Below, one piece after another: positions 1,679-19,966 of a DNA stretch of 20,000 bases. How positions within the stretch are numbered: the stretch's first letter is position 1; each line of letters opens with the position of its first letter. The notes beneath the pieces were generated by a model, which searched no databases, was not told the origin of the DNA, and saw only the letters and a program-made list of their open reading frames with translations. Position numbers and translations under genes: made by a program. The stretch covers positions 51,394 through 71,393 of IMG/VR virus record IMGVR_UViG_3300042882_000732, one strand, 5' to 3'. This stretch comes from an uncultured virus (IMG/VR IMGVR_UViG_3300042882_000732). Lineage: Duplodnaviria > Heunggongvirae > Uroviricota > Caudoviricetes.

Positions 1679-1700
1679 TATGAAGTCTCCAAGAGTGGTG

Positions 1701-1719: not shown

Positions 1720-1730
1720 TTATATATAAC

Positions 1731-1754: not shown

Positions 1755-1786
1755 CAGTTTGTCATATAGAAATATGATTGTTTATA

Positions 1787-2809: not shown

Positions 2810-2843
2810 TTTTAGTTCTCCCTTGATTTATTGATTAATTTAA

Positions 2844-3299: not shown

Positions 3300-3301
3300 T
3301 T

Positions 3302-4822: not shown

Positions 4823-4838
4823 AATTTAACCCTCGTTT

Positions 4839-7025
4839 TTAGTTAGTTGTATATATAAAAGAATAAAATGATGACTTTGCATATTTTTGTTCTTCAACAG
4901 TTAATTGCTTATCAAGCTGAGAAGATAATGACTTTAACCAATTATTATACCCCGTAATGATGTTTTTATTGTCTTCTTGATTAATATTACCAAATATTTT
5001 ATGTATTAAATCATTTGATATATTGTCAAAAGGATTCATGGAAAAAAAGATTTTATTTTTAACCTGATCTAATTCTTTATTTTGTTCGTTTGATAGACTT
5101 CTTAAATTTTTCTTATTAAAAAACTCTAACATAATAGGATTAATAATTTCATTAATTTTATCTTGGGCATCATTAGCCCAAATCAATAAGCTGGCTCCTG
5201 TTTGAGGAGAGAATACTTTGGTTTTCCTTTTTTCTTGATCTCTACTATTTTTTGGTCTACCTTGTCCTGGTTGTCCTGGTAATTGTTCATTAATATTTGG
5301 TTTAGGAGATTTAATTGGTGATGAAGGTATTTTTGACTCAAGAGCAGACTTTTCTCCTGGTTTTTTCTTATCTAATTCTAGACCGACCTGACTTGGTGTT
5401 ACTATTCCTGTTTGTAGAGCAATTTTTCTCAAAGAATTGTCAAGCTCTGGATCAAACCACGGCCCTGCTTTTTGTACCATTCTATCACTATCTCTTTCTC
5501 TGCTTTCTCTATTTAGTCTAGTTTTTTCTATGTCTGGATCAAAACCAAATCTGCTTTGTAATAATTCATCACTTATTAGATTTCTATCAGCTAATTGAAT
5601 GAGTAGTGCTTTCTCAGTATCCTCATTGCTTAGGTCCATTCTATCAAATTCAATTTTAGCTGGATATCTAAATCCCATAGCTTTTTGAACTAATGCTATC
5701 TCTTTTTCCCAAAAATCTATAAGAACATCTCTACCATACTGTAATCTTTGGGTTAATGTTTTTAAAGAAATAAAATTATTGGTAGTTCCTGCTGCTCCAA
5801 AAGTACCTGTAAGAGTTGGAGGAATACCAAGTCCAGCGTATATACTATTTAAATGTGGTATATATTTACTTTCTCCAAGAAAATTATGAACATTGGTGTT
5901 GCTCTCTAATAATTCTATATCTGGCCCCCAAACTAAATCCATTGTGCCTCCACCAACATTATTTCCTAAAATCTGAGCAAGCTTAGCTGTTGCTGCTTTA
6001 GTAGGGGCTATCTTATGCTCTAGACTGCCCAATTTAAAAATACGTATATTTGATATGGCTCCGTCTAAAGCTGCCATATCTGCTAATTTAAGTTTTTCAA
6101 CTACTGTGATATCATCCATGATTGCATATATCATAGGAAATGCCCATATCTGCCAATCATCTTTTTTATAATGAAACACTAGTGTTTTGTTTGGGTCTAG
6201 AGGATATGGTTTTTTGGCCCTAGCAGCTTCTATGATTTGTGATGGTAAATTACTAACTACTTCTTTTTCTCCTTCTGTACGAGGATTAAGAATAATTTTT
6301 CTTAAAGTACCAGGAACAATTAAATCGTATCTTTTATTACTTACGAATGAAGATAATTGACCAGCGCTCACTTCAACAAATACTGGATCGATAAATGTAT
6401 ATTTCCAAGGTATCTCTCTTTTTTCAAATTTATCATTATCTATGTCTAATACTTCTATATCTGCAGCCGCGGTGGCTTTATACATTTTATCAGCAGCTTT
6501 AATACTAAGTTTTGCTGTTTGTCTATGTACTACTACATTTGCCGTTTTATATAGATTATTTAAAAATCTTTCACTTCTATCTTTACCTTTAATCTTTTTG
6601 AACCAAGCTCTATAAAATCTTTCTATTCTTTTGTTTTTATGAACTAATTTTATTCCTTGAACAGCAAAGTCTCCCATGAGATCTATAACATTTTTTACTA
6701 AACCAACTCTCTGATATATGTCTTCTGCTTTTCTAATGATTTCTTTACTTTTATTTGGAACTGCTTCGTCTGGCCTAAAATAATCATATGCGCTTCTGGT
6801 TAGTCCTGGGCGACTACCAGTATTTGTATCTAGTCTAGAATAATCCAATCCCCATCTTCTATAAGCTTCTGATTTTTGTATACCAGAATATTCTTCTAGA
6901 GAATGAGATGATTCTTTTAGTGCATTTTTTTTGCTTTCTAAGTCATCTCCCCATGTAACATATGCTTCTTGATTTATTAAACTGGCGTCTTGTATAGCTT
7001 CACTTTTTGGATATTTTTTGGCCAT
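4839..7025 (-). CDS. Portal protein
   Basis: 728 aa directly after TerL; helical core with Pro/Gly/Lys-rich tail (GQPGQGRP). Confidence 0.8.
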   Translation of the reverse strand: MAKKYPKSEAIQDASLINQEAYVTWGDDLESKKNALKESSHSLEEYSGIQKSEAYRRWGLDYSRLDTNTGSRPGLTRSAYDYFRPDEAVPNKSKEIIRKAEDIYQRVGLVKNVIDLMGDFAVQGIKLVHKNKRIERFYRAWFKKIKGKDRSERFLNNLYKTANVVVHRQTAKLSIKAADKMYKATAAADIEVLDIDNDKFEKREIPWKYTFIDPVFVEVSAGQLSSFVSNKRYDLIVPGTLRKIILNPRTEGEKEVVSNLPSQIIEAARAKKPYPLDPNKTLVFHYKKDDWQIWAFPMIYAIMDDITVVEKLKLADMAALDGAISNIRIFKLGSLEHKIAPTKAATAKLAQILGNNVGGGTMDLVWGPDIELLESNTNVHNFLGESKYIPHLNSIYAGLGIPPTLTGTFGAAGTTNNFISLKTLTQRLQYGRDVLIDFWEKEIALVQKAMGFRYPAKIEFDRMDLSNEDTEKALLIQLADRNLISDELLQSRFGFDPDIEKTRLNRESRERDSDRMVQKAGPWFDPELDNSLRKIALQTGIVTPSQVGLELDKKKPGEKSALESKIPSSPIKSPKPNINEQLPGQPGQGRPKNSRDQEKRKTKVFSPQTGASLLIWANDAQDKINEIINPIMLEFFNKKNLRSLSNEQNKELDQVKNKIFFSMNPFDNISNDLIHKIFGNINQEDNKNIITGYNNWLKSLSSQLDKQLTVEEQKYAKSSFYSFIYTTN

Positions 7026-7039
7026 AATTTTTTAATTAT

Positions 7040-7080
7040 ATTGTAATAGGATTGTAATAGAATTGATAAATTTATACACC
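7040..7080 (-). promoter_or_regulatory. Candidate late promoter GGTGTATAAA plus tandem 10-bp repeat
   Basis: tttatacacc at 7071-7080; ATTGTAATAG at 7040-7049 and 7051-7060. Confidence 0.45.
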
Positions 7081-9117
7081 CTAGCGGTATATTCCTTTAT
7101 ATATATCATCATTAACTTCAGAAGTAAACCAATCTGGCCCTTTATACATTTGACCATTAACATTAGATGTTAAATTTTTCATATTAGCTCCAATAACTTC
7201 ATATTCTATCGGTTTAAGACTATTTGTCATTTGTCGAGCCATCATATTAGCTATCACTAATGCGCTATAACGGTCTTTTCGCAATCTTCCTCTTTTTCCA
7301 TTTGGCATTTTAACTTCAGGAGTATCCCATCTATCTCTAGCGTTTGCTCCTGTGCTAGTTTGTGTCATTACAATAGTTGTTAATTCATTTTTTAGTTCTT
7401 CTATTTCTAAAATACATTCACTTAAACTATCATATAATGGATTTAAATCTGTTGACATAATATCTTTGCCTTCGCTATCTAAAGCTAATCCAAGACTAAG
7501 ATTGTCGAATCTAGGAAATAAAGTTACCTTATCTTCAAAATCTTTTCTTAAACCATGGTTAGCCTGACCTGTCCAATCAGCCTTAGCAAATTGAACTAGC
7601 TCTAGTATATGTAATCCTTGCTGATCATCGGTATCTTTTATTTTACTATTGTCTATAAAAGGCCATATTGGCAATTCATCAGCTTCAATTTTTGATGGGT
7701 CGTGCAAAGCTTCTTCTATCGCAACTCCGCCGCCCTGAGCATCCATCCCTATCCTAGCACATGGAAATGTTTTCATGAGATTCCTTATTTTTCTCGCACA
7801 AAATCCGTAAAAATCATGTTCATTAATAGTGCCGGCTTTTTGTCGTTCTTTAAAATTTGCTCTATTAGTTGTCCATACATAAACTATACGTCGATGGTTT
7901 GGATGTATTTCTAAAACAACAATACTAAAATTATCTTGTTCGGATGCTGGGTCTATACCATAAACATATTGTAGATTTGCATTGCCTGTGGTTGTTGGTT
8001 CGAATAAAATGGGTTTATCGTCTATTAGTAGAGGTTTAGTATCTGAAACAACACAAGCTTCTATAAGGCTTCTGCGAAAGAATCCGTCGCTGTCTTCTGT
8101 AAAACAAGCAGCATATTCCATATTATATATACCGGTATGTATAGTAGCTTTAGCTCTACTTACCTGTTTGTCATCCATGAAACCTTTTGGAATTAATTCA
8201 TATGGTATTCTAATAATACTATAGTCTTTCCAATTAAAATTAGAGGGAACTTCTCCTTTAAAAATTTCTTGTAATTTTTGAGTGTCTCCTCTACTACTTA
8301 TAATTTCTTTATATCTTCTCCAGTATACAGCAAAATGTTTAAAAGAATAATCAGCGGTACCAGAGATAATTGCTTGATTACCCATTTTTATACTAAGTTC
8401 TTCTAATTTTTCGTTCCAAACTCCGGACTCTATCATTGCTTGTTTTTTTGCTTCTTCTTTAACGTTTTGTATAGGGTTTGCGGATACTGCTGCGAATCCA
8501 GACACAACTGTTTCATATATGTCAGGAGATATGGATGCAAACTCGTCAGCTATGATTATGTGTGCTCTTAAGCCTCTAATCTTGGAACCGTCACCCATTG
8601 GTATAGCAACTGTCCAGCTATCTCCTAATCTCATTGTGCATCTATCAACGTCTCGTCTTGGCCCATCGTCATTACCATTATATATGCTTCTTAATATTGC
8701 GCTATTTTTCCAAATAGTTTCCATATATTCGAATATGATTTTACTTTGACGAAATGCTGCGCCAACAACAACAATTTTTGTACCAGGAATAAAGACGCAT
8801 TTTAATATACAATATAAAGCCATTAAAAAAGATTTACCAAATCCACGACTAGCTATGAACATGGGGAATGGTCTTATCCAAAATTCTTGTAATATTGCAA
8901 CTTGTATGGGGTGAAGCTCTATTCCAAATAATAGCTTTACTGTACTACCAAGATACTTGGGATCTTTTATAATTCTCATAAGATGCAAATCTGGATTTTC
9001 AATATCCTCTTTGCTTCTGTTGATCATAAGATTATGATCGATATTAATTAATGATAGATCTCCTAGGCCAAGCCAGGCATCATCAAAAAATTGGCTTGTC
9101 TTTTCTTTCGACTTCAT
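7081..9117 (-). CDS. terL: Terminase large subunit
   Basis: Walker A ASRGFGKS, Walker B IIIADE, RNase H-like YVYGIDPA and KDRYSA. Confidence 0.93.
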   Translation of the reverse strand: MKSKEKTSQFFDDAWLGLGDLSLINIDHNLMINRSKEDIENPDLHLMRIIKDPKYLGSTVKLLFGIELHPIQVAILQEFWIRPFPMFIASRGFGKSFLMALYCILKCVFIPGTKIVVVGAAFRQSKIIFEYMETIWKNSAILRSIYNGNDDGPRRDVDRCTMRLGDSWTVAIPMGDGSKIRGLRAHIIIADEFASISPDIYETVVSGFAAVSANPIQNVKEEAKKQAMIESGVWNEKLEELSIKMGNQAIISGTADYSFKHFAVYWRRYKEIISSRGDTQKLQEIFKGEVPSNFNWKDYSIIRIPYELIPKGFMDDKQVSRAKATIHTGIYNMEYAACFTEDSDGFFRRSLIEACVVSDTKPLLIDDKPILFEPTTTGNANLQYVYGIDPASEQDNFSIVVLEIHPNHRRIVYVWTTNRANFKERQKAGTINEHDFYGFCARKIRNLMKTFPCARIGMDAQGGGVAIEEALHDPSKIEADELPIWPFIDNSKIKDTDDQQGLHILELVQFAKADWTGQANHGLRKDFEDKVTLFPRFDNLSLGLALDSEGKDIMSTDLNPLYDSLSECILEIEELKNELTTIVMTQTSTGANARDRWDTPEVKMPNGKRGRLRKDRYSALVIANMMARQMTNSLKPIEYEVIGANMKNLTSNVNGQMYKGPDWFTSEVNDDIYKGIYR

Positions 9118-9562
9118 ATATTTTTCTCATGAGAGCTTCTGCTATTTTTTCTGCATTATTGGCAGATCCACAAAATAATATTCTTATACCAAAATATATT
9201 TGAAATTCGTTAATATTTTTAATAATAAATGCTGGAGATATTTTTAATTTTTCCCAAACATGTCTAGGAACATTAGATCCAACTGGAAAATTATATATAT
9301 CCTCCAAATTAAATTCAAATAACATAAAAGGATATTTGTATTCTTTCATTCTATTAAGAACATCTTTAAATCTTTTTTCAGTAATATTGTTGGCAATTTC
9401 ACTAACGCTCTTTTTCCTCTCAATGCATAGGATATTCTCTAATCCTTCTATGCTATAGTCTCCAGTGTCTAGTTTTCTTGAGGCAGTAGCTTGATATTTG
9501 AACTTCCAAGGCTGTTGCTCTCTAGTATCAACTATGATTGTAAAATCAGGATAACTTGTCAT
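9083..9562 (-). CDS. ERCC4-domain (XPF/Mus81-like) nuclease
   Basis: IIVDTREQ, LDTGDYS and IERK motifs. Confidence 0.85.
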   Translation of the reverse strand: MTSYPDFTIIVDTREQQPWKFKYQATASRKLDTGDYSIEGLENILCIERKKSVSEIANNITEKRFKDVLNRMKEYKYPFMLFEFNLEDIYNFPVGSNVPRHVWEKLKISPAFIIKNINEFQIYFGIRILFCGSANNAEKIAEALMRKIYEVERKDKPIF

Positions 9563-9824
9563 TATTTTTACTCAGTATGATTCTTAAAAAGGCCACCTCG
9601 TATTGCTCTTCCATCCCTTTTATTGTATTGTGATGATCTCTGCACAAAGTTATTCCATTTGAGGTAACGAATCGTAAATTAGGATAATCGCTCCATTTTT
9701 TGATATGATGAGCATTTAATTTTTTATTACTAGAGCACCCTGGCCACTGACAAGTGAATTTGTCTCTTTTATAAATATCAGATCTCCACTTTTTATATAA
9801 AGGATCATCAAAATTTCTAAGCAT
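9546..9824 (-). CDS. HNH endonuclease, packaging-associated type
   Basis: RDKFTCQWPGC...AHHI...NGITLCRDHH; 92 aa, near terL. Confidence 0.88.
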   Translation of the reverse strand: MLRNFDDPLYKKWRSDIYKRDKFTCQWPGCSSNKKLNAHHIKKWSDYPNLRFVTSNGITLCRDHHNTIKGMEEQYEVAFLRIILSKNNDKLS

Positions 9825-9826
9825 AA

Positions 9827-10813
9827 TTAATCTTTCTCTAGTTTTATATCTGAATCTACCATATCTTTTATTAAATTATCAAATGATATTTCTGGACGCC
9901 AGCCCAGTTCATTTTGAGCTTTTGTTGAAAGTCCTTTTAAATACTCTACCTCTGCTGGTCTATATAATTCAGGATCTATTTCGACGTATTCTTTATATGA
10001 CAATCCTGCGTAATCAAATGCTTTTCTAACAAAGCTTAATACTGAATGGCTTTCTCCAGAAGAAATAACATAATCAGAAGGAGAATCTTTTTGTAACATT
10101 AGATGCATAGCCTTTATATAGTCTTTTGCATGTCCCCAATCTCTGCTAGAATTTAAATTTCCAAGTTTAAGATTCTCATTAGTTTTTTTATTAATAACTT
10201 TGCCTATATATTTTGTTACTTTTCTTGTTACAAAGTTCTCGCCTCTTCTTGGGCTTTCGTGATTGAATAGTATTCCAGAGCACGTAAAAATATTATACGC
10301 ATTTCTATATATTTGAACCATTCTATGACTTGCTAATTTGGCAACACCATATGGATTTTGTGGCAAAAGTTCCGTATTCTCATCTTGGTATTTATTTCCT
10401 AAAGAATCAGTAGAGAAATTTCTACCAAACATTTCACTGGTACTTGCTTGATAAAATTTAGTATCTGCAGAATAATGCCTAATAGCCTCTAGTATATTAA
10501 TTACTCCAATAGTTCCTATCTCAAAAGTTGTTGAAGGTTGTTTGAAACTTGTTCCAACATGACTTTGTGATGCTAGATTATAAAATTCATCTGGCTGATA
10601 TTTAGAAATTAAAGATCCAACCACAGATGGATCTGTTACATCAAACTCCTCCAAATAAAAATTTGTATTCAATAAACTATGAGATAGTCTACTAAAATTA
10701 TTAACACTGGACCTTCTATGTAAACCAATAACTTTATATCCTTTTTCTAATAAATGATCCGATAAATAAGATCCGTCCTGTCCTGTTGCTCCGGATATCA
10801 TTGCTATTTTCAT
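9827..10813 (-). CDS. gmd: GDP-mannose 4,6-dehydratase
   Basis: GATGQDGSYL, YNLASQSHV, QASTSEMFG, YGVAK, FNHESPRRGENFVTRK, RDWGHAKDY, RPAEV all intact. Confidence 0.95.
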   Translation of the reverse strand: MKIAMISGATGQDGSYLSDHLLEKGYKVIGLHRRSSVNNFSRLSHSLLNTNFYLEEFDVTDPSVVGSLISKYQPDEFYNLASQSHVGTSFKQPSTTFEIGTIGVINILEAIRHYSADTKFYQASTSEMFGRNFSTDSLGNKYQDENTELLPQNPYGVAKLASHRMVQIYRNAYNIFTCSGILFNHESPRRGENFVTRKVTKYIGKVINKKTNENLKLGNLNSSRDWGHAKDYIKAMHLMLQKDSPSDYVISSGESHSVLSFVRKAFDYAGLSYKEYVEIDPELYRPAEVEYLKGLSTKAQNELGWRPEISFDNLIKDMVDSDIKLEKD

Positions 10814-10814
10814 A

Positions 10815-11642
10815 TCATTCCTCGTCCTTAATAATGCTTTCTGGAGTTAATAAAGGTCTATCTAATTTTTTATCATTATAAGAATGGTATTCTTGTAATT
10901 TATTCTTAAATTTTTCTGTAGCCATGGATAAAATTTCCATTTCTCTTCCTTCTCGTTCTCTTACTTCTTCATCTTCAAGCATTCTAATTAGTCCAACCCA
11001 GCTGCTTTTCCCATCTTCTATCCTTTTGATTCTTTGTTCTCTCGTTGCTTTAAGATCCTTACTGATTTTTTGCTGCTCATTAAGTAGTTTTGTATACTCG
11101 TTAGTATAATTAGCAATGCTATTACGAGCAAAGCTAAGTTGAGTTTCAAGATTGGCTAATTTTGGAATATCTCTTTGATCTTCTGGTTTTTCATATTCTT
11201 TATCTACTTGTCTTTGAAGTTTTTCAGTTTCTGCTATGTGCCTTTTTCTTTCTTTCATACTACGATTTATTAGAATATCTATTGTAATAAACTGTTTAAT
11301 TTGTAATTCTTCTGCTGGTAATACGTCTTCTCTAAATTGTTTAATAAGACTTACCCAAGTATTTTCGAAGTATTCTAGTTCGCCAGTGTCTTCGTCAAAT
11401 TGTCTTTTTATTTCAGACCAAAAGTTTTTACTGTGTAATTTAATTTTTAAATATTCTATTTCTTCTTTAGAATCACCAGCTAATAATTGTTCCTCATTAA
11501 TAAATCTTTTAATAGGATCTATATTTCTATTTAGATTATCTGCTATGCTTTGCAATGGCAGTCTTTGAACATTATCTCTGATGTATCTTTCTTCATCAAG
11601 ACTTAATTGTCCTCTTTTTTTAGGAACTTGTTTACTATCCAC
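10815..11642 (-). CDS. HTH + coiled-coil protein, candidate terminase small subunit
   Basis: N-terminal HTH-like LPLQSIADNLNRN, long helical region, upstream of terL. The TerS assignment is positional only. Confidence 0.4.
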   Translation of the reverse strand: MDSKQVPKKRGQLSLDEERYIRDNVQRLPLQSIADNLNRNIDPIKRFINEEQLLAGDSKEEIEYLKIKLHSKNFWSEIKRQFDEDTGELEYFENTWVSLIKQFREDVLPAEELQIKQFITIDILINRSMKERKRHIAETEKLQRQVDKEYEKPEDQRDIPKLANLETQLSFARNSIANYTNEYTKLLNEQQKISKDLKATREQRIKRIEDGKSSWVGLIRMLEDEEVREREGREMEILSMATEKFKNKLQEYHSYNDKKLDRPLLTPESIIKDEE

Positions 11643-12286
11643 TCGTTATCCTCCATTAATTTTTGAATATGTTTTTGCAATTTAACTAAATTTTGTTTTG
11701 ATAACTTTTCCCCATTTTTTAATTTGCAATAGTATTCTCTATATTCTGTCTCTATATTTTGATCTAGAAAATCTATAATCTCTTTATTTTGGATAGAAGA
11801 TAATAGGTTATTTTCTGAAAAAATAGGATTATCTATTTCATTATCAATATACGTTGGTTGCATAATATTTTTCTTAGCATCATTTCTAGCTGCCCAAGCC
11901 GCATATAAGTCACAATCTTTTTTATTAGTATATTTAGAGCATTGATTATTTGAACACTTGTATGCTTTATCAAAAAGGGGACAAGTAAAACATGGCTTAT
12001 CTGGTCTCTGGTAATTATTTCTTTTATAATTGAAAAGTCGATTTCTTACGTGGGTCCACAGAAAATTTTCTAATGGCCTAGAAGAGTCGTATTTTTCTAA
12101 TCCTTCTAAAGCAAAAATAGCAGCCTGCTGCTTCATATCATCAAATTCATGATAGCCAAACTTGAATTTATGGCCTAGTCTTTTTGTTATATTATCTAAT
12201 ACCTTTAAAAAGTCCTCTTCGGAAACATCTTTTGGTAAAGATTTATTATTAGTTATTTTTAACTTTTTCTGTTTCTTTTGTCTCAT
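11603..12286 (-). CDS. Sigma70-family-like factor (region 2) with Cys-rich insert
   Basis: DDMKQQAAIFALEGLEKYDSSRPLENFLWTHVRNRLFNYKR resembles sigma region 2; followed by CxxC-x8-C-x4-C-x8-C. Confidence 0.7.
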   Translation of the reverse strand: MRQKKQKKLKITNNKSLPKDVSEEDFLKVLDNITKRLGHKFKFGYHEFDDMKQQAAIFALEGLEKYDSSRPLENFLWTHVRNRLFNYKRNNYQRPDKPCFTCPLFDKAYKCSNNQCSKYTNKKDCDLYAAWAARNDAKKNIMQPTYIDNEIDNPIFSENNLLSSIQNKEIIDFLDQNIETEYREYYCKLKNGEKLSKQNLVKLQKHIQKLMEDNEWIVNKFLKKEDN

Positions 12287-12410
12287 CTAGTAACTCTGCT
12301 ATGGTCTTTGATTCTGGTAGATTTAATTCTTCTTCTGATATATGAAAATCAGCAGTTGCTTTAACATCTAATACAGATGGGACCAATTCAGAAAAATTTG
12401 GCTTATTCAT
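12249..12410 (-). CDS. Small hypothetical protein
   Basis: Likely start ATG 12410 (MNKPNF) behind AAGGAG, rather than 12437. Confidence 0.5.
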   Translation of the reverse strand: MNKPNFSELVPSVLDVKATADFHISEEELNLPESKTIAELLDETKETEKVKNN

Positions 12411-12499: not shown

Positions 12500-12730
12500 A
12501 TGGCAACATATAAAAGATGGAATCAGGAGGAGTTGGAGTTCATCAAAAATAATCAAAAGCTATTGAGTGATGAAGAGATGGCGGCAAAATTAGGTCAAAT
12601 GACTGGTGGTAATGTTACTACTGCTATGATTAGGAGACAGCGTAGAAAGCTTGGTATTCAAAAGCAAAAGGGTAGAAGGAAGAAAAATCCATCATTAGTA
12701 GTTTCTGTTGGAGAAAGCACAAATGTCTGA
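12500..12730 (+). CDS. Small basic HTH DNA-binding protein (Myb/GcrA-N-like)
   Basis: RWNQEELEFIK...SDEEMAAKLG...VTTAMIRRQRRKLGI; RBS AAGGA. Confidence 0.65.
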   Translation: MATYKRWNQEELEFIKNNQKLLSDEEMAAKLGQMTGGNVTTAMIRRQRRKLGIQKQKGRRKKNPSLVVSVGESTNV

Positions 12731-13121
12731 TAAGAAGCCATTCGGATATAGTTATTTTCTAGACATGTATAATACTAAAGAAGGAACAGCGGATGATCTA
12801 GAATTAGTATATAGATTTTTAGAAAGACTGGTTGATGAAATAGGAATGACAAGAATGACTCCTCCTATAGTTATTCATGGTCCAACGGATCATGGTAAGG
12901 AAATTTATGCAGATAAGTATGGCGTAAGTGGGTGGGTTGGATTAATCGAAAGTGGTATACAAATACATGCTATAGAGGCAAAAAGATTTATTAGTTTAGA
13001 TGTTTATTCTTGCTCTTGCTTTAAGCCCGAAACAGTATTAGAGTTTGCTAAGAAACATTTTGGTTTTGATAAATATGAGGATCATTTCTTAGAAAGAGGA
13101 CTTGAATATCATAATACATGA
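12723..13121 (+). CDS. speD: S-adenosylmethionine decarboxylase-like pyruvoyl proenzyme
   Basis: GVSGWVGLIES-GIQIH...LDVYSC matches class 1b AdoMetDC (E|S cleavage site, His at +5, Cys). Start likely 12723 after GGAG. Confidence 0.82.
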   Translation: MSDKKPFGYSYFLDMYNTKEGTADDLELVYRFLERLVDEIGMTRMTPPIVIHGPTDHGKEIYADKYGVSGWVGLIESGIQIHAIEAKRFISLDVYSCSCFKPETVLEFAKKHFGFDKYEDHFLERGLEYHNT

Positions 13122-13150
13122 TGGATATCTTTCTATATTTGACTAAAGAG

Positions 13151-13180
13151 TGGGCCAGTTTTTACTGGTCCATTTTTTTT
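13151..13180 (+). terminator. Rho-independent terminator
   Basis: TGGGCCAGT-TTTT-ACTGGTCCA followed by T8. Confidence 0.85.
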
Positions 13181-13750
13181 ATCTTTTAATAACTCATTCT
13201 GAGTTGCTAAAAATTATGTGGCCACGTCTTTCTGCATAATCCAGTTGCCGCGTTATTAAAAGATGGTAAGCCCAATTAGCTTATTTAAATATATGTCATA
13301 GGGATCTTGCTACTTATGAATTTATGATTTGGTATTTGTGGTGCAGATGGGAGTTAATATCACCAAAAAATAAATAATTATGTAAACTGGCCAATTATAA
13401 TAATAGGGGTGAGATTTTTTAAAAAATATTTGTAATTGATTCTTAGGTTCTATGATGATAAAGATTCATGAATATTATTTTGTGGTGCAGGATGGTGGGG
13501 CAATATGGCCAATTGGTAGTAAAAGTTTGTGTGATTTAGAACTGGGGTCTTTAGGTATATGGATATGGTGATTATGGATACAATATAAAAGATTATTATG
13601 GGGGAATTAGGCTAATAAACTGGCCAATTATATTATAGAGTCCCCTATTGTGTTTGTACCACCCCGGGTTTTATGGGAAAATCATGGGAGTCCTTTGGAA
13701 AACAAAAAAACCCCCTGGGCAAACCAAAGGATTTTTATAAGGCTATGGGG
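13181..13750. repeat. Non-coding region with dispersed direct repeats
   Basis: TAAACTGGCCAATTATA at 13383 and 13616; TTTGTGGTGCAG at 13335 and 13479; further GCCAATT copies; no ORF in track. Confidence 0.7.
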
Positions 13751-13837
13751 CCAATTTTGACGTAAAGTGTTGTAGGGTATGGGTTTATGTATAATCGGGT
13801 GATTGATACTATCTTGTGTTTAAGAGAATAATATATT

Positions 13838-13853
13838 TGGCACGAAATTTGCT
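13838..13853 (+). promoter_or_regulatory. sigma54 -24/-12 site
   Basis: TGGCACG-AAAT-TTGCT, full consensus with GG-N10-GC. Confidence 0.75.
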
Positions 13854-13887
13854 CTAAAAATATTTTTATTTGGCACGAAAATATATT

Positions 13888-13927
13888 TCAAGATTTGTCT
13901 TGCAATGGCCGATAAATATGGTATAAT
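13888..13927 (+). promoter_or_regulatory. Overlapping sigma28-like and sigma70 promoters
   Basis: TCAAG-15-GCCGATAA; TTGCAA(13900)-16-TATAAT(13922) with extended TG. Confidence 0.7.
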
Positions 13928-13954
13928 AGCAGCACACAAGAAAGAAAGGCCAAA

Positions 13955-14092
13955 ATGCTGACTCTCATTCAGGTTGGTAAGAAGTATAAGGTATATAGGA
14001 TGGATTCGAATAAGAATGATGGGAAAAATAGGAAGTTGCTTGGTACGTTCAAGAATAGTGAAGAAGCCATCCGATTCATGAATGCCTCTTGA
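13955..14092 (+). CDS. 45-aa AP2-like microprotein, paralog 1
   Basis: MLTLIQVGKKYKVYRMDSNKNDGKNRKLLGTFKNSEEAIRFMNAS; purine-rich RBS; homologous to 15508 and 16461 ORFs. Confidence 0.8.
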   Translation: MLTLIQVGKKYKVYRMDSNKNDGKNRKLLGTFKNSEEAIRFMNAS

Positions 14093-14117
14093 CAAGTAAG
14101 GGAATAAGGTATATAGT
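14089..14117 (+). promoter_or_regulatory. sigma70 promoter
   Basis: TTGACA-17-TATAGT; the -35 contains the upstream stop codon. Confidence 0.75.
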
Positions 14118-14141
14118 ATGATCACTCTACAGGAAAAGAAA

Positions 14142-14330
14142 ATGAATAGCCTCGACAAGATTATGGCCGCTATGCGTGCTGGCAAGTATGGCAGTGTGAT
14201 TGACCCAAAGGGCAACGCTCATGTGGGCATCATCAATGCTATCATGCGTGAGGATGGTAGTGGGCGTAACTGGATTGTGAGCATTACTAACAAGACAAAA
14301 AATGAACAAGTATTCATACATGCTACCTAA
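14142..14330 (+). CDS. Hypothetical early protein
   Basis: MNSLDKIMAAMRAGK..., after AGGAAAAGAAA. Confidence 0.7.
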   Translation: MNSLDKIMAAMRAGKYGSVIDPKGNAHVGIINAIMREDGSGRNWIVSITNKTKNEQVFIHAT

Positions 14331-14452
14331 GGGGGGTATGTTAAATTTAGAAAAATGGGGCGGCCCGATTTGACGTAAAGTATTGCTGTATATAGACTTA
14401 TGGCTAATCATATGATCGACACGATGTTATGTTTAAGGGAATACTATATTCT

Positions 14453-14541
14453 TGGTATGACATTTGCTACTGGTATCCTTACGACATTGTAAGGAAACTT
14501 TGTGCTTGCAATCTAAAGTGGATTCTGTATAATGACGATAT
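14453..14541 (+). promoter_or_regulatory. sigma54-like site, palindromic operator, overlapping sigma70/sigma28-like promoters
   Basis: TGGTATG-ACAT-TTGCT (14453); CCTTAC-N6-GTAAGG (14477); TTGCAA(14506)-16-TATAAT; TAAAG(14514)-15-GACGATAT. Confidence 0.7.
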
Positions 14542-14563
14542 AAGAGAAAAGGGAGAAAAAGAA

Positions 14564-14728
14564 ATGACATACTTCGCTCAAATCGTAGACGCTTGGGATT
14601 GTGAACTGGATTTCATCGGCCCGTTTTATACTGAGGATCAGGCAACTACTGCCGCTTTCGATAAGTGGGATGGTGAGGATGGGTGTAGGGTAAATATCAT
14701 CAAAAGGCTTCCGGCTTTTGCTCACTGA
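14564..14728 (+). CDS. Hypothetical small early protein
   Basis: MTYFAQIVDAW...FIGPFYTEDQA; RBS GGGAG; start reassigned from 14429. Confidence 0.65.
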   Translation: MTYFAQIVDAWDCELDFIGPFYTEDQATTAAFDKWDGEDGCRVNIIKRLPAFAH

Positions 14729-14748
14729 AAAAATATTTTCTAGTGGGG

Positions 14749-14776
14749 TTGACGTAGGATTGCCGATAAGTATACT
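14749..14776 (+). promoter_or_regulatory. sigma70 promoter with GCCGATAA in spacer
   Basis: TTGACG-16-TATACT. Confidence 0.65.
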
Positions 14777-14793
14777 AGGGAAAAGGAAAAGAA

Positions 14794-14988
14794 ATGACAC
14801 TGAATACAGAAATCTCGACAACGTATGATGGTAAGCGATATACGGGCTTGGTTGTAGAAATCAAGAAGATGAGCAATCGTGAGTTGATCACGATCATGAT
14901 CGAAGATGATACGCGGAATGATGGCATAGGGTATCGTAGCCTTTATGCCGATAAGATGAGCGAAACTTCCGAAAACCTTTTTGCATAA
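14794..14988 (+). CDS. Hypothetical early protein
   Basis: 64 aa; promoter and purine-rich RBS upstream. Confidence 0.7.
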   Translation: MTLNTEISTTYDGKRYTGLVVEIKKMSNRELITIMIEDDTRNDGIGYRSLYADKMSETSENLFA

Positions 14989-14998
14989 GGATCATACA

Positions 14999-15235
14999 AT
15001 GAGCAATGACTTTGTATACGATATGAGCGAAATCAATGAGGAAGATATGTTCAAGGCTTGGGAAGAAATGGTAGCCGAAGATGGTAGCATCTGGGAAACG
15101 GGATACGGGGACGATGACGATTATATTCCGGGCCTCGATGACGGAGAGGGCTATGATTCGATCATGGGTGACGAATACCCCGAAACGGATGATGAATGGC
15201 TCGACGATTTCCAAGGCGAGGAGGAGTTTGCCTAG
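14999..15235 (+). CDS. Highly acidic small protein
   Basis: MSNDFVYDMSEINEED...WLDDFQGEEEFA; RBS AAGGA; a single Lys and no Arg. Confidence 0.7.
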   Translation: MSNDFVYDMSEINEEDMFKAWEEMVAEDGSIWETGYGDDDDYIPGLDDGEGYDSIMGDEYPETDDEWLDDFQGEEEFA

Positions 15236-15363
15236 GGGGATACACCCCCCACTAGGGGGAAAGGCTTGACGTAAACCATTGCTGCATAAGCATTTACAGC
15301 AAAGCCGCGGGCTCAGGTTTGACGTAAAGTATTGCTACATAAGGATTTGCGGCGAATCGCTAC

Positions 15364-15486
15364 AGCAAACGGTGTGCTAAAAGAAAAAATGTTTTTTGGC
15401 ATGATATTTGCTGAAGATAACCTTACGATATTTTAAGGAAATATTTTACTTGCAATCTAAAGAATGACCGGGTATAATGTCGATAT
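15364..15486 (+). promoter_or_regulatory. Back-to-back sigma54-like sites, operator, overlapping sigma70/sigma28-like promoters
   Basis: Minus TAGCACA-CCGT-TTGCT (15379-15364); plus TGGCATG-ATAT-TTGCT (15397); CCTTAC-N6-TTAAGG (15421); TTGCAA(15450)-17-TATAAT; TAAAG(15458)-16-GTCGATAT. Confidence 0.7.
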
Positions 15487-15507
15487 AAGGAATAGAGGAG
15501 AAAACAA

Positions 15508-15660
15508 ATGAACACTTCGCTCGAACAGCACGGTAAGGTTTTCAAGGTATTTCAGATTATTTCCGGTGCGTATGACGGGAAAAATCGTAAGTTACTAGGC
15601 AAGTTCAAGACTTCCGAAGATGCTATACGCTTCATGAATCGTATCTCTTCGTCTAGGTGA
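15508..15660 (+). CDS. 50-aa AP2-like microprotein, paralog 2
   Basis: MNTSLEQHGKVFKVFQIISGAYDGKNRKLLGKFKTSEDAIRFMNRISSSR; RBS GAGGAG. Confidence 0.8.
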   Translation: MNTSLEQHGKVFKVFQIISGAYDGKNRKLLGKFKTSEDAIRFMNRISSSR

Positions 15661-15663
15661 AAA

Positions 15664-15873
15664 ATGAACAGCAAAACGATTGCAAAAGAGTTGAAAAAGA
15701 TAGGCTACACGCTCAAGCGTACTTCCGATGTTGAAGCGCGTTGGATGGTTCGTTCAGATGTGCTTACCTACCATTGGGATTTCAAAGATCTGAAAGGCGT
15801 AGAGCGTTTCATGGTTGACGAGCGTGCCATGTATAGGTACGCTAAGGCGAACGGTGCTACTCTTCGCAAATAA
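15664..15873 (+). CDS. Hypothetical early protein
   Basis: 69 aa, starts 3 bp after the upstream stop. Confidence 0.65.
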   Translation: MNSKTIAKELKKIGYTLKRTSDVEARWMVRSDVLTYHWDFKDLKGVERFMVDERAMYRYAKANGATLRK

Positions 15874-15884
15874 TAAGGGGAAAG

Positions 15885-16094
15885 ATGCAAGTTTTCGATC
15901 ATAGACTTTTGGTTGCTGTTCCTGCGAACAAGTGGATTGGAGAATGGATTCAACGTGACCCATCCCCTATTTATAGGGGGACGCTGGCGGCACAGTTGCG
16001 ACTTATACGCAAGAGGCACGGAACCCCCCACGCGAAGGGGTATCGAGACCATATGGTGTGGATGGGGAGCTATCCCCCCAAGTATAGGGGGTAA
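15885..16094 (+). CDS. Hypothetical basic early protein
   Basis: 69 aa; RBS AAGGGG; stops just before a palindrome pair. Confidence 0.55.
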   Translation: MQVFDHRLLVAVPANKWIGEWIQRDPSPIYRGTLAAQLRLIRKRHGTPHAKGYRDHMVWMGSYPPKYRG

Positions 16095-16193
16095 TTAGAC
16101 GTAAACCCTTGATGGATAATCATTTACGAAAAATCCGGGACCACCGATTTGACGTAAAGCATTGTGGCGTAATGACTTATGACTAGTGAATAT

Positions 16194-16428
16194 AGCAAAT
16201 ACTGTGCCGCGGAATAAAAAATTTTAAGCCTAAAAAAGAGGCATGGTAAGATGGGTAATCCGTTGCAAAATGCTACAATGGTAGTGTTTGACGGCCAAAA
16301 TCACTAACGCAAAATGCTACAGGGTGTTGCAAAATGCTACGCTTAAAAAGGGGGATCAAAAAATGTCATAGCGTTTTTCCCGAGCGAAACGCAAAAAAGA
16401 ATAATCTATGTTTGGCACACCGATTGCT
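16194..16428. promoter_or_regulatory. Divergent sigma54 sites flanking three enhancer-like repeats
   Basis: Minus CGGCACA-GTAT-TTGCT (16209-16194); GCAAAATGCTAC at 16265, 16309, 16329; plus TGGCACA-CCGA-TTGCT (16413). Confidence 0.7.
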
Positions 16429-16460
16429 CTATATATAGGTATAAGAAAGAGAGAGTGAAA

Positions 16461-16604
16461 ATGGAAACGCTGGTTCTAATCGTCGTAAAGGGTAAGTATA
16501 AGGTTTATAGGGAAACCAAGTATCCCAACGGATATTCCCGTAGGCTTCTGGCAACCTTCAAAACTTCTTACAATGCCGAAAGGTTCATGAACTCTCGCCC
16601 ATAA
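16461..16604 (+). CDS. 47-aa AP2-like microprotein, paralog 3
   Basis: METLVLIVVKGKYKVYRETKYPNGYSRRLLATFKTSYNAERFMNSRP. Confidence 0.75.
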   Translation: METLVLIVVKGKYKVYRETKYPNGYSRRLLATFKTSYNAERFMNSRP

Positions 16605-16674
16605 GGGGGGTATGCAAGGCGAGAAAAGTTTCCTAGAATCATTCCAGTATCACCAACCAAGAGAGAAAAAGAAA

Positions 16675-17004
16675 ATGGCTACCAAGTTCAAGATTATCGA
16701 AGATGCCAAGCGTCAGGTTCGCATGTGCTTTCTTGGAATCGCAATCCCTCACCAACCATCACTCGCTGATGGGGTATATGGCCCGATCCGTAGCGAGAAG
16801 GTTTTGAAGTTCAATCGCAAGGCGTTGCGTAATGCTGGTAGTATCAAGGCTGAAAAAGCCGATCCCCGCTATAAGGGGGGTGACGATCTTATGATCGTAA
16901 AGGTTGGCAAGCCAGGTTCGGCTGAACGTAAGGCCGCATTGGCCGCACAGTATGAGGCGATTCTTGCTTGTGGAGAGGAAGTCTCCCCCTTCTCGGAGGG
17001 GTGA
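16675..17004 (+). CDS. Hypothetical early protein
   Basis: MATKFKIIEDAKR..., after a purine-rich tract; start reassigned from 16612. Confidence 0.65.
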   Translation: MATKFKIIEDAKRQVRMCFLGIAIPHQPSLADGVYGPIRSEKVLKFNRKALRNAGSIKAEKADPRYKGGDDLMIVKVGKPGSAERKAALAAQYEAILACGEEVSPFSEG

Positions 17005-17193
17005 CATCCGTACACTAGTGCTCAAAGATTTGATGATACAAAATCTTGACATCTAATCATTTAGAAAAATGCGGGCGGACCCAGTTTGATCTAAAGCGTT
17101 ATGGCATATATACTTACGACTAATATGCTGATCGATACGATCTTCTGTTTAAGAAAATAAAATATTTTGGCACAAGATTATTTTTATTTTTCT

Positions 17194-17235
17194 CAAAGAT
17201 TTTCTTATTGACATGACGATAATATGTAGTATAAT
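17194..17235 (+). promoter_or_regulatory. Overlapping sigma28-like and consensus sigma70 promoters
   Basis: CAAAG-16-GACGATAA; TTGACA(17208)-16-TATAAT(17230). Confidence 0.75.
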
Positions 17236-17261
17236 CAAGGTATCATAACGGAGAGAAACAG

Positions 17262-17561
17262 ATGAGCAGTACGAAGCGTGAAATGATTGAGCGGATTGCG
17301 GAGCGGGTGGGTGTGACGGGCGAGCAGGCTCGTGAGATCGTGCAAGCCACACTAGACAACATGATCGAAACGCTCTCTACCACTGGTCGCATCGAACTTC
17401 GCAACTTCGGTGTGTTCGTAGTCAAGAGGGTCGCCCCTCGCAACGCTCGCAATCCTCGAACGGGTGAGAGTGTGATGGTGTCCGCTCACAACGTGGTCAG
17501 GTTCAAGGCGGGTAAGGTGATGGATGCAGCAATCCAGAACGATTCGCTACAACCGGCTTGA
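17262..17561 (+). CDS. IHF/HU-family DNA-bending protein
   Basis: TKREMIERIA...RIELRNFGVF...ARNPRTGE...VRFKAGK signature. Confidence 0.93.
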   Translation: MSSTKREMIERIAERVGVTGEQAREIVQATLDNMIETLSTTGRIELRNFGVFVVKRVAPRNARNPRTGESVMVSAHNVVRFKAGKVMDAAIQNDSLQPA

Positions 17562-17697
17562 GTAAGTCAGGGCTTATTTTGTATCACCACAACCTACAGG
17601 GTTGGCAAGGTGGGCTATAGTCAGCGTAAATGTAGGCAAAACGTAAAATGGAGGGGCCCGATTTTTCATAAAAGATTGTGCGATAAGTACTTGCGAA

Positions 17698-17764
17698 CCT
17701 TACAGTATTGTAAGGAAAAATATTCACGATTACCCCTTGCATTGGCCGATAATGTATGTATAAT
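17698..17764 (+). promoter_or_regulatory. Palindromic operator plus overlapping sigma28-like/sigma70 promoters
   Basis: CCTTACA-GTAT-TGTAAGG (17698); TCACG-16-GCCGATAA; TTGCAT(17737)-16-TATAAT. Confidence 0.65.
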
Positions 17765-17803
17765 CGTGGCATGATGATCGCGACCACCAACGGAGAGCAT
17801 AAG

Positions 17804-17989
17804 ATGCTGAACGACTTCGACGAAGTGAATGGTGTTCTGGCCGACCTTGCCGAGCGGGGTATCGTCGAGCCTATGGTCGAGCCGATTGATGATCCCAATA
17901 TGGAGATCAACTACTGGGATTGGGCAGATATTGTGGGTATTGTTGACGAGTTGACTCCGAATGAACCATTTTGGGCAAATATATACTAA
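17804..17989 (+). CDS. Acidic small protein
   Basis: MLNDFDEVNGVLADL...; RBS GGAGAG; start reassigned from 17756. Confidence 0.65.
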   Translation: MLNDFDEVNGVLADLAERGIVEPMVEPIDDPNMEINYWDWADIVGIVDELTPNEPFWANIY

Positions 17990-18054
17990 TGAACGCTCTT
18001 CTTTTTATCGTGGCATATATTGGATTGTGTTTTTGTGTTCTTTGTAAGGATTAG
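17989..18054 (+). CDS. 21-aa hydrophobic micropeptide
   Basis: MNALLFIVAYIGLCFCVLCKD; TAATG coupling; fills the gap between neighbouring ORFs. Confidence 0.5.
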   Translation: MNALLFIVAYIGLCFCVLCKD

Positions 18055-18056
18055 TT

Positions 18057-18326
18057 ATGAGTCACCCTGATCCTTTGTTCGATCCCGATAACTCTTATGA
18101 GGATGATGACATGAGCAGTCACTTTGACGATTATCAATATGATTACCATGACGCTTTCTATGGCGAAGATAGTTCGGCCTATCATGCCGATGCTGATCAC
18201 GATGACGATTACTCTGATCACTATGATGACAGCATGGATGGAGATCACGACAGCGCTATGGGGTCAGTAGGCTGGGCCGAAGATGAATACTATAATCCTT
18301 CAATGGATGACTATGGTGACTGGTGA
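18057..18326 (+). CDS. Asp/Tyr/His-rich acidic protein
   Basis: 89 aa with no Lys or Arg; RBS AAGGA. Confidence 0.7.
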   Translation: MSHPDPLFDPDNSYEDDDMSSHFDDYQYDYHDAFYGEDSSAYHADADHDDDYSDHYDDSMDGDHDSAMGSVGWAEDEYYNPSMDDYGDW

Positions 18327-18709
18327 TTATGTAATATATTATGACAATTATGGCATAAGCATATACATTTGTTTATTTCTGTCATGATAGTATCCCACCC
18401 GTGTTTTTTACCAACCAACTGAATAACTCCATTTTTCTTTTGTGATGGGTCGGTATGATGCCATACGAGAGAGCGAGAATCATCATATCCACAATGTAAG
18501 CAAGATTTATCTTTCATGTATTCATCATATAGAATCCTTATTTTATTTCTACGACTTTTAGAATACTGATTGATTTTATCTTTTGTTTTTGATCTATATT
18601 CCGATTGTTTTTGGTTCACCATAGACCTATGTTTGCTCTTGTATCTTTGGTTTCTAATCTTGTAAGACTCTTTATTTCGCTGATATTCTTGTGGATCATA
18701 TTTTGCCAT
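18311..18709 (-). CDS. Free-standing HNH (homing-type) endonuclease
   Basis: CLHCG...LVWHH.DP...KCICLCHNCH with a basic N-terminal helix; opposite strand to neighbours; AT-rich. Confidence 0.85.
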   Translation of the reverse strand: MAKYDPQEYQRNKESYKIRNQRYKSKHRSMVNQKQSEYRSKTKDKINQYSKSRRNKIRILYDEYMKDKSCLHCGYDDSRSLVWHHTDPSQKKNGVIQLVGKKHGWDTIMTEINKCICLCHNCHNILHNHQSP

Positions 18710-18736
18710 AGTACTCGTCTCCGGTATGGAAATGTA

Positions 18737-18754
18737 GACTATGGTTTATACACC
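18737..18754 (-). promoter_or_regulatory. Candidate late promoter for the HNH gene
   Basis: Minus strand GGTGTATAAACCATAGTC. Confidence 0.5.
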
Positions 18755-18876
18755 AATATTATAAGAATCTAACTACTTGTTGCATAAGACTTTACGACGA
18801 ATCGGGCCGCACGATCTTGACGTAAACTCTTTAGGCTCAACGACTTAAAGCAACTCTAGAATCTTTTATTTTGTTG

Positions 18877-18913
18877 TTGACTTCTAAAGTTTCTTCCTGT
18901 ATAATGTCGATAC
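18877..18913 (+). promoter_or_regulatory. Overlapping sigma70/sigma28-like promoters
   Basis: TTGACT-17-TATAAT; TAAAG(18885)-16-GTCGATAC, reading TAAAGTTT at the -35. Confidence 0.75.
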
Positions 18914-18931
18914 AAAGGAAAAGGAAAACAA

Positions 18932-19051
18932 ATGTTTGGACTGGTATTTTTGGCGATTTTCGGTTATATGATGTATATCGAAATCGTAACCTTTTTTGAG
19001 AATCGACGAGACGAAAAAAGAATCCGCGAATATTTTAAGAATCGCGGTTGA
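18932..19051 (+). CDS. 39-aa single-TM microprotein
   Basis: MFGLVFLAIFGYMMYIEIVTFFENRRDEKRIREYFKNRG; RBS AAGGA; stop overlaps the next -35. Confidence 0.65.
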   Translation: MFGLVFLAIFGYMMYIEIVTFFENRRDEKRIREYFKNRG

Positions 19052-19075
19052 CAAAGCCGATAAGTAGAGTATACT
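19035..19075 (+). promoter_or_regulatory. Overlapping sigma28-like/sigma70 promoters
   Basis: TTAAG-16-GCCGATAA; TTGACA(19048)-16-TATACT. Confidence 0.75.
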
Positions 19076-19102
19076 TAGAACATCACCCAGAAGGAAAAGA
19101 AC

Positions 19103-19414
19103 ATGACTCACGCTGAAGCAGTTTCTATGGTTCGTGGCAAGCGGAATAAGGACAGCCGCAAGGTGGGAAACAACACCTACGCTGAAATCCTGCCGTGTGG
19201 ATCGGTTGGTATTTTGCTCCACAGCACCTATGTGGTAAAGATTCATGCTGACAATACCTATACCCTCCAGACTGGGGGTTGGCAAACCAGTACCACCAAG
19301 GATAGAATCAACCAGTATAGCCCCGTTCGTGTGTACCAGCACAAGTATGAGTGGTTCGTGAAACTGAATGGTAAGGAATATCCTTTTATGGAAGGAATGG
19401 TGGTGGGAGGATGA
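19103..19414 (+). CDS. Hypothetical phage early protein
   Basis: 103 aa, with GGWQTSTTKDRIN motif; promoter and RBS upstream. Confidence 0.75.
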   Translation: MTHAEAVSMVRGKRNKDSRKVGNNTYAEILPCGSVGILLHSTYVVKIHADNTYTLQTGGWQTSTTKDRINQYSPVRVYQHKYEWFVKLNGKEYPFMEGMVVGG

Positions 19415-19491
19415 TTTTATATCTCGCGGGTTTATATGGTGTTATTTTACTAAATACTTTTCTTTGTTGGATCATAGAAGAATGTCGCTAG
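19411..19491 (+). CDS. 26-aa hydrophobic micropeptide
   Basis: MILYLAGLYGVILLNTFLCWIIEECR; ATGA overlap with upstream gene. Confidence 0.5.
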   Translation: MILYLAGLYGVILLNTFLCWIIEECR

Positions 19492-19547
19492 TTATTGCTA
19501 CTATGTTTCTTTTTGGTTTATTTATATCTTTGTTTTTTATTACTTAA
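19482..19547 (+). CDS. 21-aa hydrophobic micropeptide
   Basis: MSLVIATMFLFGLFISLFFIT; overlaps previous ORF; weak RBS. Confidence 0.4.
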   Translation: MSLVIATMFLFGLFISLFFIT

Positions 19548-19561
19548 GTAAGGAGCCATGG

Positions 19562-19672
19562 ATGGCCGATATATATTTAGACTGGAATAGTTTCGGTGCT
19601 GGATTTATTGCTGGCCTTGTGTGTTCTTGGTTTGTTTGTGACCTGGTTTTTCCTACTGTAAAAAAGGATTAG
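19562..19672 (+). CDS. 36-aa single-TM micropeptide
   Basis: MADIYLDWNSFGAGFIAGLVCSWFVCDLVFPTVKKD; RBS AAGGAG. Confidence 0.6.
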   Translation: MADIYLDWNSFGAGFIAGLVCSWFVCDLVFPTVKKD

Positions 19673-19674
19673 GT

Positions 19675-19752
19675 ATGAAAGATGGGGATGCTATTGTTTT
19701 ATCTATTGCGTTTGTCTTCGGATGTATCGCGGCGTGGGTGGTAAACTACTAG
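19675..19752 (+). CDS. 25-aa hydrophobic micropeptide
   Basis: MKDGDAIVLSIAFVFGCIAAWVVNY; RBS AAGGA. Confidence 0.55.
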   Translation: MKDGDAIVLSIAFVFGCIAAWVVNY

Positions 19753-19763
19753 GAGACTAAAAA

Positions 19764-19829
19764 ATGTTCTATGGTATTCCTATGATTGTTGAAGTTTTAA
19801 AGAAAATGAACGACTCTAAGGCCAAGTGA
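19764..19829 (+). CDS. 21-aa micropeptide
   Basis: MFYGIPMIVEVLKKMNDSKAK; RBS AGGAG; stop abuts a palindrome pair. Confidence 0.5.
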   Translation: MFYGIPMIVEVLKKMNDSKAK

Positions 19830-19929
19830 TCTAAAGCCTTGATGCGTAAGAGTTTACGCCAAGGCCCAGCGGACGCATTTGACGCAAACTATTGAGACAC
19901 AACAACTTACGATTTTCAAAAAAATATGC

Positions 19930-19966
19930 TTGACTTCTAAAGTTTAGGCTGGTAGAATACCGATAT
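19930..19966 (+). promoter_or_regulatory. Overlapping sigma70/sigma28-like promoters for an ORF starting at 19991
   Basis: TTGACT-17-TAGAAT; TAAAG(19938)-16-ACCGATAT; leader resembles the one before 16461. Confidence 0.7.

Follow-up and report, generated by a model that had tools for sequence, protein, structure and literature searches.

The closest described relatives of the element analyzed here are sites for the DNA-bending protein integration host factor (IHF), repeated IHF-binding elements of bacteria, and promoter cassettes of phages. DNA bound by IHF has two kinks about 9 bp apart, the flank is clamped at the TTR via salt bridges, and a single TTR change lowers the affinity 100- to 250-fold (PMC5829579; 10.1101/382655); the IHF consensus is WATCAANNNNTTR (PMC8942017). 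Upstream of the early promoter of phage Mu (Pe), IHF relieves repression by H-NS (PMC8501957). We have studied a stretch of 20,000 nucleotides (the window; coordinates below are window positions) from a large, uncultured lake virus of the Caudoviricetes, IMG/VR record IMGVR_UViG_3300042882_000732, positions 51,394–71,393, in which 29-bp symmetric units recur, singly or as twin elements, between small genes of an early region. The element is real and family-wide. We assign a probability of roughly 0.65 to the reading, based on sequence comparison, that each unit would bind one dimer of the IHF/HU family (DNABII) in a U-turn, and that the paired turns would nearly close a loop aiding the next early promoter.

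The record is 71,393 bp long and 48% complete; the window is its right end, and the contig stops at position 20000. A first-pass annotation made from the letters of the window had described 13 palindromic units at eight loci, and all 13 were confirmed, restricted to the early region. Single units lie at 13761–13789, at the start of the array next to a linker remnant (13737–13760), at 14374–14402, with the GC-box linker on the upstream side (14350–14373), and at 17667–17695, also with the GC-box linker upstream. The others form twin elements of 82 bp at 15270–15351 (units 15270 and 15323, joined by a 24-bp GC-rich linker), 16100–16181 (16100 and 16153), 17037–17118 (17037, which is degenerate, and 17090), 18768–18849 (18768 and 18821) and 19830–19911 (19830 and 19883), and the start-to-start spacing of exactly 53 bp claimed for these five pairs was confirmed. 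A scan of the full contig with a scoring matrix had been proposed as a check; the matrix, built from 12 of the 13 units, gave 10.6–36.6 bits for these, recovered the thirteenth (17667) at 17.8 bits and scored the rest of the contig at 7.0 bits or less. When units were left out one at a time, 11 of 12 were recovered at 20.0–34.2 bits, with the best background at 7.9 bits or less. Unit 17037 failed this procedure (1.9 bits, with five background sites above it), yet it fits the strict pattern YAA-N4-TTR-N5-YAA-N4-TTR, which occurs nine times in the contig, always within the array, and zero times in the reversed control.

Relatives were gathered with the sigma-like gene of the record; 80 related viral loci were obtained, and complete genomes of some 200–244 kb are among them. 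In these, 260 of 273 spacings below 200 bp are 53 bp, as are 741 of 803 unique short spacings in a larger set (units in 196 of 247 sequences, with overlapping loci). Eight records have 10–21 loci each, in one block of 10–21 kb adjoining the terminase (two of them, G012 and G001, being partly covered). In G001, which has the same early genes, the array extends to 16 loci, beyond the point where the present contig ends.

The anatomy of the unit was derived from 444 de-duplicated twin elements of the relatives, that is, 1776 half-sites. From the centre outward the half-site reads Y-A-A-N4-T-T-R, the whole unit being the pattern scanned above. TTR is conserved in 1770 of the 1776 half-sites, the kink AA in 1606 and YAA in 1388, and all 13 units of the window have TTR on both arms; two phage lineages use differing inner arms. 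In the 11-7-11 imperfect palindrome described by the first-pass annotation, only 4–8 of 11 arm positions are complementary, and what is conserved is a sparse set of TAA, TT, AA and TTA. The cores vary, as had been said, but they are not free, the first base being a purine and the last a pyrimidine. The linker of 24 bp has 65% GC and a central GGSCGSCC-like box; its ending in TTGA holds in part, the linker of unit 17667 ending in TTTT.

This anatomy bears on whether the element acts as a folded strand. Arm positions that vary show no covariation, and shuffled sequences fold as well as the linker does (−8.03 for the linker vs. −8.11), so the unit appears to be recognized as duplex DNA. An apparent covariation between units (z up to 14) disappeared when 48 non-redundant arrays were shuffled within genomes and was set aside as a lineage effect. 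That the element is an RNA or single-stranded DNA hairpin, either a terminator or attC-like, is in our judgment hardly credible. Stop codons do often end no more than one or two bases from the element, the whole element folds at −23.1 compared with −21.4 in column-resampled controls, and covariation within genomes is seen at a small number of outer positions (z 3–6). The incomplete pairing of the arms, the silence of their variable positions, which leaves the covariation expected of attC sites absent, the shuffle-like linker and the lack of both a U tract and an Rfam match all speak against a hairpin, and a scan of the eight window loci found no terminator-like site.

The second option of the first-pass annotation, phased sites for a DNA-binding protein, was supported and can be sharpened to the geometry of the IHF/HU family. 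The consensus WATCAANNNNTTR has the same AA-N4-TTR tail as the unit, which mirrors that tail on both strands. The unit contains TT-N7-AA, kink-type steps 9 bp apart, in the register of the lambda site H', whose kinks fall on these TT/AA steps; lambda H' (J02459) fits the relaxed pattern AA-N4-TTR-N5-YAA-N4-TTR in that same register. A reading as XerD/XDS sites was also considered: the literature searched yielded no consensus for these, and the E. coli dif site, the only dif compared, does not fit; its layout is 11-6-11, with a 6-bp spacer and inner TAA/TTA. A symmetric site, we infer, is what a dimer of identical subunits should favour if each of them reads TTR.

The elements stand in a regular relation to promoters. 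A downstream sigma-70-like match is found at 189 of 208 loci of the relatives, compared with 28 on the reverse strand, and at 408 of 444 elements in the larger set. Measured from the middle of the last unit, the position of the −35 box shows peaks at 33 bp (26 loci), 43–44 bp (81 loci) and 54 bp (11 loci). The phasing test was restricted to distances of 25–70 bp, longer ones being less regular and excluded; for the 227 distances in this range, helical phasing at 10.5 bp reached R=0.62, against 0.22 or less in a jitter null. In the window, sigma-70-like promoters on the plus strand lie at 13900–13927 (a consensus match, with 125 bp between its −35 box and the middle of unit 13761), 14506–14533 (118 bp from the unit centre), 15450–15478 (113 bp), 17208–17235 (a 12/12 match, 104 bp), 17737–17764 (TTGCAT..TATAAT, 56 bp, seen by eye and not in the scan list), 18877–18905 (42 bp) and 19930–19958 (33 bp). 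The earlier statement that every locus precedes a promoter block needs a correction for the pair 16100/16153, which has only a weak sigma-70 match (16288, 9/12) and a sigma-54-type box at 16413 downstream.

Taken together, these observations suggest the following scheme. The unit would be a mirror-symmetric, high-affinity site for a DNABII dimer of the host, and each unit would take the U-turn known for IHF. Two in-phase U-turns, set 53 bp or five helical turns apart, could bend the 82-bp element round into a loop that is almost closed. The most likely task of such a loop would be to help activate the following early promoter or lift its silencing, much like IHF at Mu Pe, and it may also separate successive transcription units. 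Homology between the 82-bp copies would let cassettes swap in the manner of PeSLs.

Which protein might bind? One gene of the array itself, at 17262–17561 on the plus strand, encodes an IHF/HU-family protein of 99 aa (Pfam PF00216, E 4e-28) and is an accessory cassette gene. In IHF-beta, Arg42, Glu44 and Arg46 read the TTR. These three are key residues specific to IHF-beta, and for IHF-beta in lineages without IHF-alpha, homodimerization and specific binding are an open question (10.1101/2024.06.24.600358). The phage protein has the PF00216 fold, the intercalating proline and Arg42/Glu44/Arg46 and is of the IHF-beta type; its RIELR aligns with RIEIR of IHF-beta in an alignment with Protein Data Bank sequences, and R-x-E-x-R and RNP are kept by all 74 of its 74 homologues. 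An Atlas search returned generic IHF/HU clusters only. The gene is present in 4 of 30 related records and in 0 of 11 complete ones, so a host protein is likely to serve most arrays; the idea of the phage's own protein as the obligatory binder was rejected in view of the complete relatives. In some phages, this one included, the phage-borne bending protein may be a supplement or a competitor.

For a comparison of hosts, 50 genomes, including 15 of Planctomycetota, were drawn from a motif scan. The top eight matches of the phage IHF-type protein among the 50 are all from Planctomycetota (38–55%), as are the top four matches of the phage GDP-mannose dehydratase. Five Planctomycetia genomes have one IHF-beta-type protein each, four of them together with a second, divergent PF00216 match. 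The binder is thus most likely, as judged from these protein matches, a homodimer of the IHF-beta-type protein that a Planctomycetia host would provide. A more far-reaching version of the proposal is tentative, and to us possible rather than probable: that this homodimer reads the symmetric consensus, that about 16–21 twins turn the early region into loops serving as boundaries or supercoil barriers and as activators, and that the phage copy saturates or outcompetes the protein of the host. If true, this would amount to a phage-programmed punctuation of chromatin, with terminator-free boundaries on a freshly injected early region, and it would offer hundreds of natural sites for testing sequence-specific binding by IHF-beta without IHF-alpha.

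The motif is also found in bacterial chromosomes. A scan of GTDB genomes with the exact pattern gave at least 121 loci in many phyla, with 27 Planctomycetota titles among the matches listed. Among these 121 listed matches, 24 hold the exact IHF consensus in register and 18 are no more than 40 bp away from the 3' end of a tRNA, a typical context of integration sites. In one Lachnospiraceae genome (G035), the six fetched of 26 motif copies (L248–L253) each form the middle of a longer imperfect inverted repeat; this element resembles the RIB type or the type of miniature inverted-repeat transposable elements, and the DNABII protein detected in the genome is of the HU type only. Twin sites 50–53 bp apart were also seen on three short contigs of metagenome-assembled genomes (L087, L143 and L199, with Alpha- or Gammaproteobacteria titles); these may be phage fragments that carry related elements and were binned wrongly.

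Several observations weigh against binding by an IHF-beta-type host protein or against the proposed effect on promoters. The exact WATCAANNNNTTR is present in 10 of 220 phage units, most having 2–3 mismatches, and its WATC part is exchanged for GC-richer bases; the conserved outer CG/GAC and the GC box of the linker are unaccounted for by IHF. Four of the seven promoters of the window are 104–125 bp away, where phasing is weak, and related phages do not provide independent loci. The assignment of the host rests on two genes and on 50 genomes pre-selected for the motif. Across 61 Planctomycetota genomes taken without selection, enrichment of the strict motif is only mild (128 vs. 84 in the control). 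It is strong in three genomes chosen for the presence of one motif copy, namely one of the Lachnospiraceae (26 vs. 0), one of the Saprospiraceae (159 vs. 15) and one of Emticicia (101 vs. 37). The PF00216 proteins that were detected and aligned in these three genomes lack R-x-E-x-R. Either, then, the IHF-beta residues are not required, and HU-type proteins may favour this geometry too, or another protein binds.

The latter possibility can be put more specifically: the units could be operators for a different, widely conserved host dimer, such as a binding-only protein of the tyrosine-recombinase family or an unrecognized regulator, with two dimers cooperating on one face of the helix. This would account for the motif-rich genomes just described, for the conservation of CG/GAC beyond the IHF consensus and for the coordinate difference between the two phage lineages at the inner arms. 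We regard it as unlikely, given that the invariant positions are exactly the TTR and the kink steps, that dif does not fit and that the array of some phages includes an IHF-type gene.

Exchange of cassettes at the elements was supported, as was their role as boundaries: relatives have one flank of an element in common, whereas their sequences on the opposite flank are different. The first-pass annotation had offered recombination sites of an integron-like system as its other explanation, and this found no support. Tyrosine-recombinase crossover sites, used by a host recombinase on integron-like cassettes, would have inverted arms around 7 bp, as the unit does, and the swaps map across the element; the chromosomal copies at tRNA ends point the same way. 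Identical cores, however, occur in only 34 of 4164 within-locus pairs (mean 2.6 of 7 positions). For the mapping of switch points, element pairs that share a 40-bp flank on one side only were taken, one pair per flank family, which reduced 422 pairs to 88 independent one-sided swaps, and the points were estimated by changepoint analysis. About 68 of the 88 fall inside the element, a placement that the selection scheme favours. Breakpoints in the 7-bp cores, a check proposed earlier and run here on the relatives, amount to 8.3 of 88 where 11.0 are expected, and simulated crossovers at core ends put 74% of their mass in the right arms, compared with 9% observed. An initial impression of identity loss at core 2 was not upheld by the changepoint analysis.

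A breakpoint excess in the GC box (11.7 vs. 4.4, p ~0.003) could also be taken as a sign of crossover. Under symmetric definitions this hot spot proved one-sided: pairs sharing the upstream flank have 9.1 vs. 3.2, and those sharing the downstream flank 2.6 vs. 2.9. Because the excess is one-sided and this stretch diverges fastest between orthologous sites, it is a probable artefact. As to the enzyme, the earlier remark that no recombinase is in the window can be extended to the whole contig: no tyrosine recombinase (PF00589) over the cut-off was found in this 48%-complete contig or in 13 related records, and no resolvase (PF00239) in 11 records; a host enzyme could still supply the activity. 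Two of the 13 records have a sub-cut-off PF00589 open reading frame far from the array, one at 1255–2112 of L081 (about 285 aa, G011) and one in L082 (G008), which counts in favour of crossover sites. Of the 15 joints listed (of 28) from assembled contigs of four lake runs, none connected one core with another. With cores almost never identical, no core excess or hairpin covariation, and a profile unlike the simulated one, we hold crossover sites to be highly improbable. Some 16–21 similar 82-bp copies between genes would allow ordinary homology-driven exchange; the cassette swapping is real, and on the present analysis it looks homology-driven, as at PeSLs.

The location of the array raises one more alternative, that it serves entry or replication of the DNA, as an iteron- or origin-like array or by anchoring the DNA that is injected first, and not transcription. 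Origins make use of bending of the IHF type, and the clustering of 10–21 loci within 10–21 kb adjoining the terminase block in eight records would suit such a function. Contig depth rises toward the array without a clear terminal-repeat step, this depth being a sum over relatives. The copies, however, recur roughly every 1 kb, always at a boundary between gene and promoter and phased to −35 boxes, and we consider the alternative quite improbable.

Minus-strand genes occupy positions 1–12,300 of the window, including those for terminase, a capsid cement protein and the sigma-like protein; from about 13,750 onward, small plus-strand open reading frames alternate with promoter blocks. A search of GenBank phages with a putative capsid protein gave no match. 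Near the terminase are genes for a GDP-mannose 4,6-dehydratase (9827–10813) and an S-adenosylmethionine decarboxylase (12708–13121). The interval 13121–13760 ahead of the array is non-coding, with repeated TGGCCAATT and terminator-like hairpins at 13145–13178 and 13686–13736, and is a candidate genome end or packaging region. The early open reading frames between elements (13955–19414, plus strand) are co-oriented and mostly without a family; one, at 19103 on the plus strand, is Kyano_Gp96-like. Three paralogous basic ones of 45–50 aa (13955–14092, 15508–15660 and 16461–16604; 55–60% identity to the first) are each the first gene past an element and have no Pfam or PHROG family. An HNH endonuclease gene at 18311–18709 lies on the minus strand, opposite to the direction of the array.

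Further signals accompany the promoters. Sigma-54-type boxes of the pattern TGGCAC-N5-TTGC lie on the plus strand between element and promoter at 13838–13852, 15397–15411 and 16413–16427, and such boxes occur in either orientation at 50 of 208 loci of the relatives. Three GCAAAATGCTAC repeats (16265–16340) upstream of the 16413 box are possibly activator sites of an enhancer-type promoter. An 18-bp palindrome, CCTTAC-N6-KTAAGG, stands immediately upstream of the −35 box at 14477–14494, 15421–15438 and 17698–17715 and is visible in relatives too; it is a probable operator. GCCGATA in promoter spacers and GTCGATA or GACGATA right after −10 boxes (13908, 14762, 17745, 19056) may be a phage- or host-specific promoter element.

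If the proposed binding by a host DNABII protein is right, a widespread family of 150–240 kb freshwater phages would base its early expression on a DNA-bending protein of the host, by way of a recurring twin site with precise phasing. The element and the 99-aa phage protein are a ready test pair for the question of IHF-beta homodimers, and the arrays suggest that repeated docking sites for a protein can act as seams for gene swapping without a dedicated recombinase.

No description of the twin element was found in the literature searched, subscription papers being outside its scope. The surprise is limited, since the parts, IHF sites at phage promoters and PeSL-type shuffling, were known already. 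Among repeated elements, RIBs have one IHF site between two REP hairpins. As in the present case, RIB/BIME-1 of E. coli are repeats that bind IHF and sit where transcription units have their 3' ends (PMC3479197; Boccard and Prentki 1993), but here two IHF-type sites surround a GC box, and there are no REPs. In the Type I-F CRISPR leader a stretch of about 150 bp is bent by IHF at two sites and takes the form of a U-turn plus a loop (10.1101/2023.05.26.542337); that fold serves integration by Cas1-2/3, whereas no partner integrase was found here. The PeSL cassettes of T4-type phages share with our array repeated intergenic units, strong sigma-70-like promoters, a plastic region and shuffling of genes via recombination between copies (PMC2839356). 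In PeSLs, terminator stem-loops overlap the promoter, whereas here there is no hairpin signal and the element lies upstream of the promoter. The IHF site at Mu Pe is single and asymmetric. In Mu, as proposed for our loci, a bending protein of the host acts ahead of an early phage promoter (PMC8501957), but where Mu has one site, a symmetric twin is repeated here ahead of nearly every early unit. With IHF sites such as H' of lambda attP, finally, the unit shares TT/AA steps 9 bp apart and a flanking TTR; such sites combine TTR with an A-tract, whereas the present units have TTR on both flanks and differ further in their fixed pairs at 53 bp and their 16–21 loci per genome.

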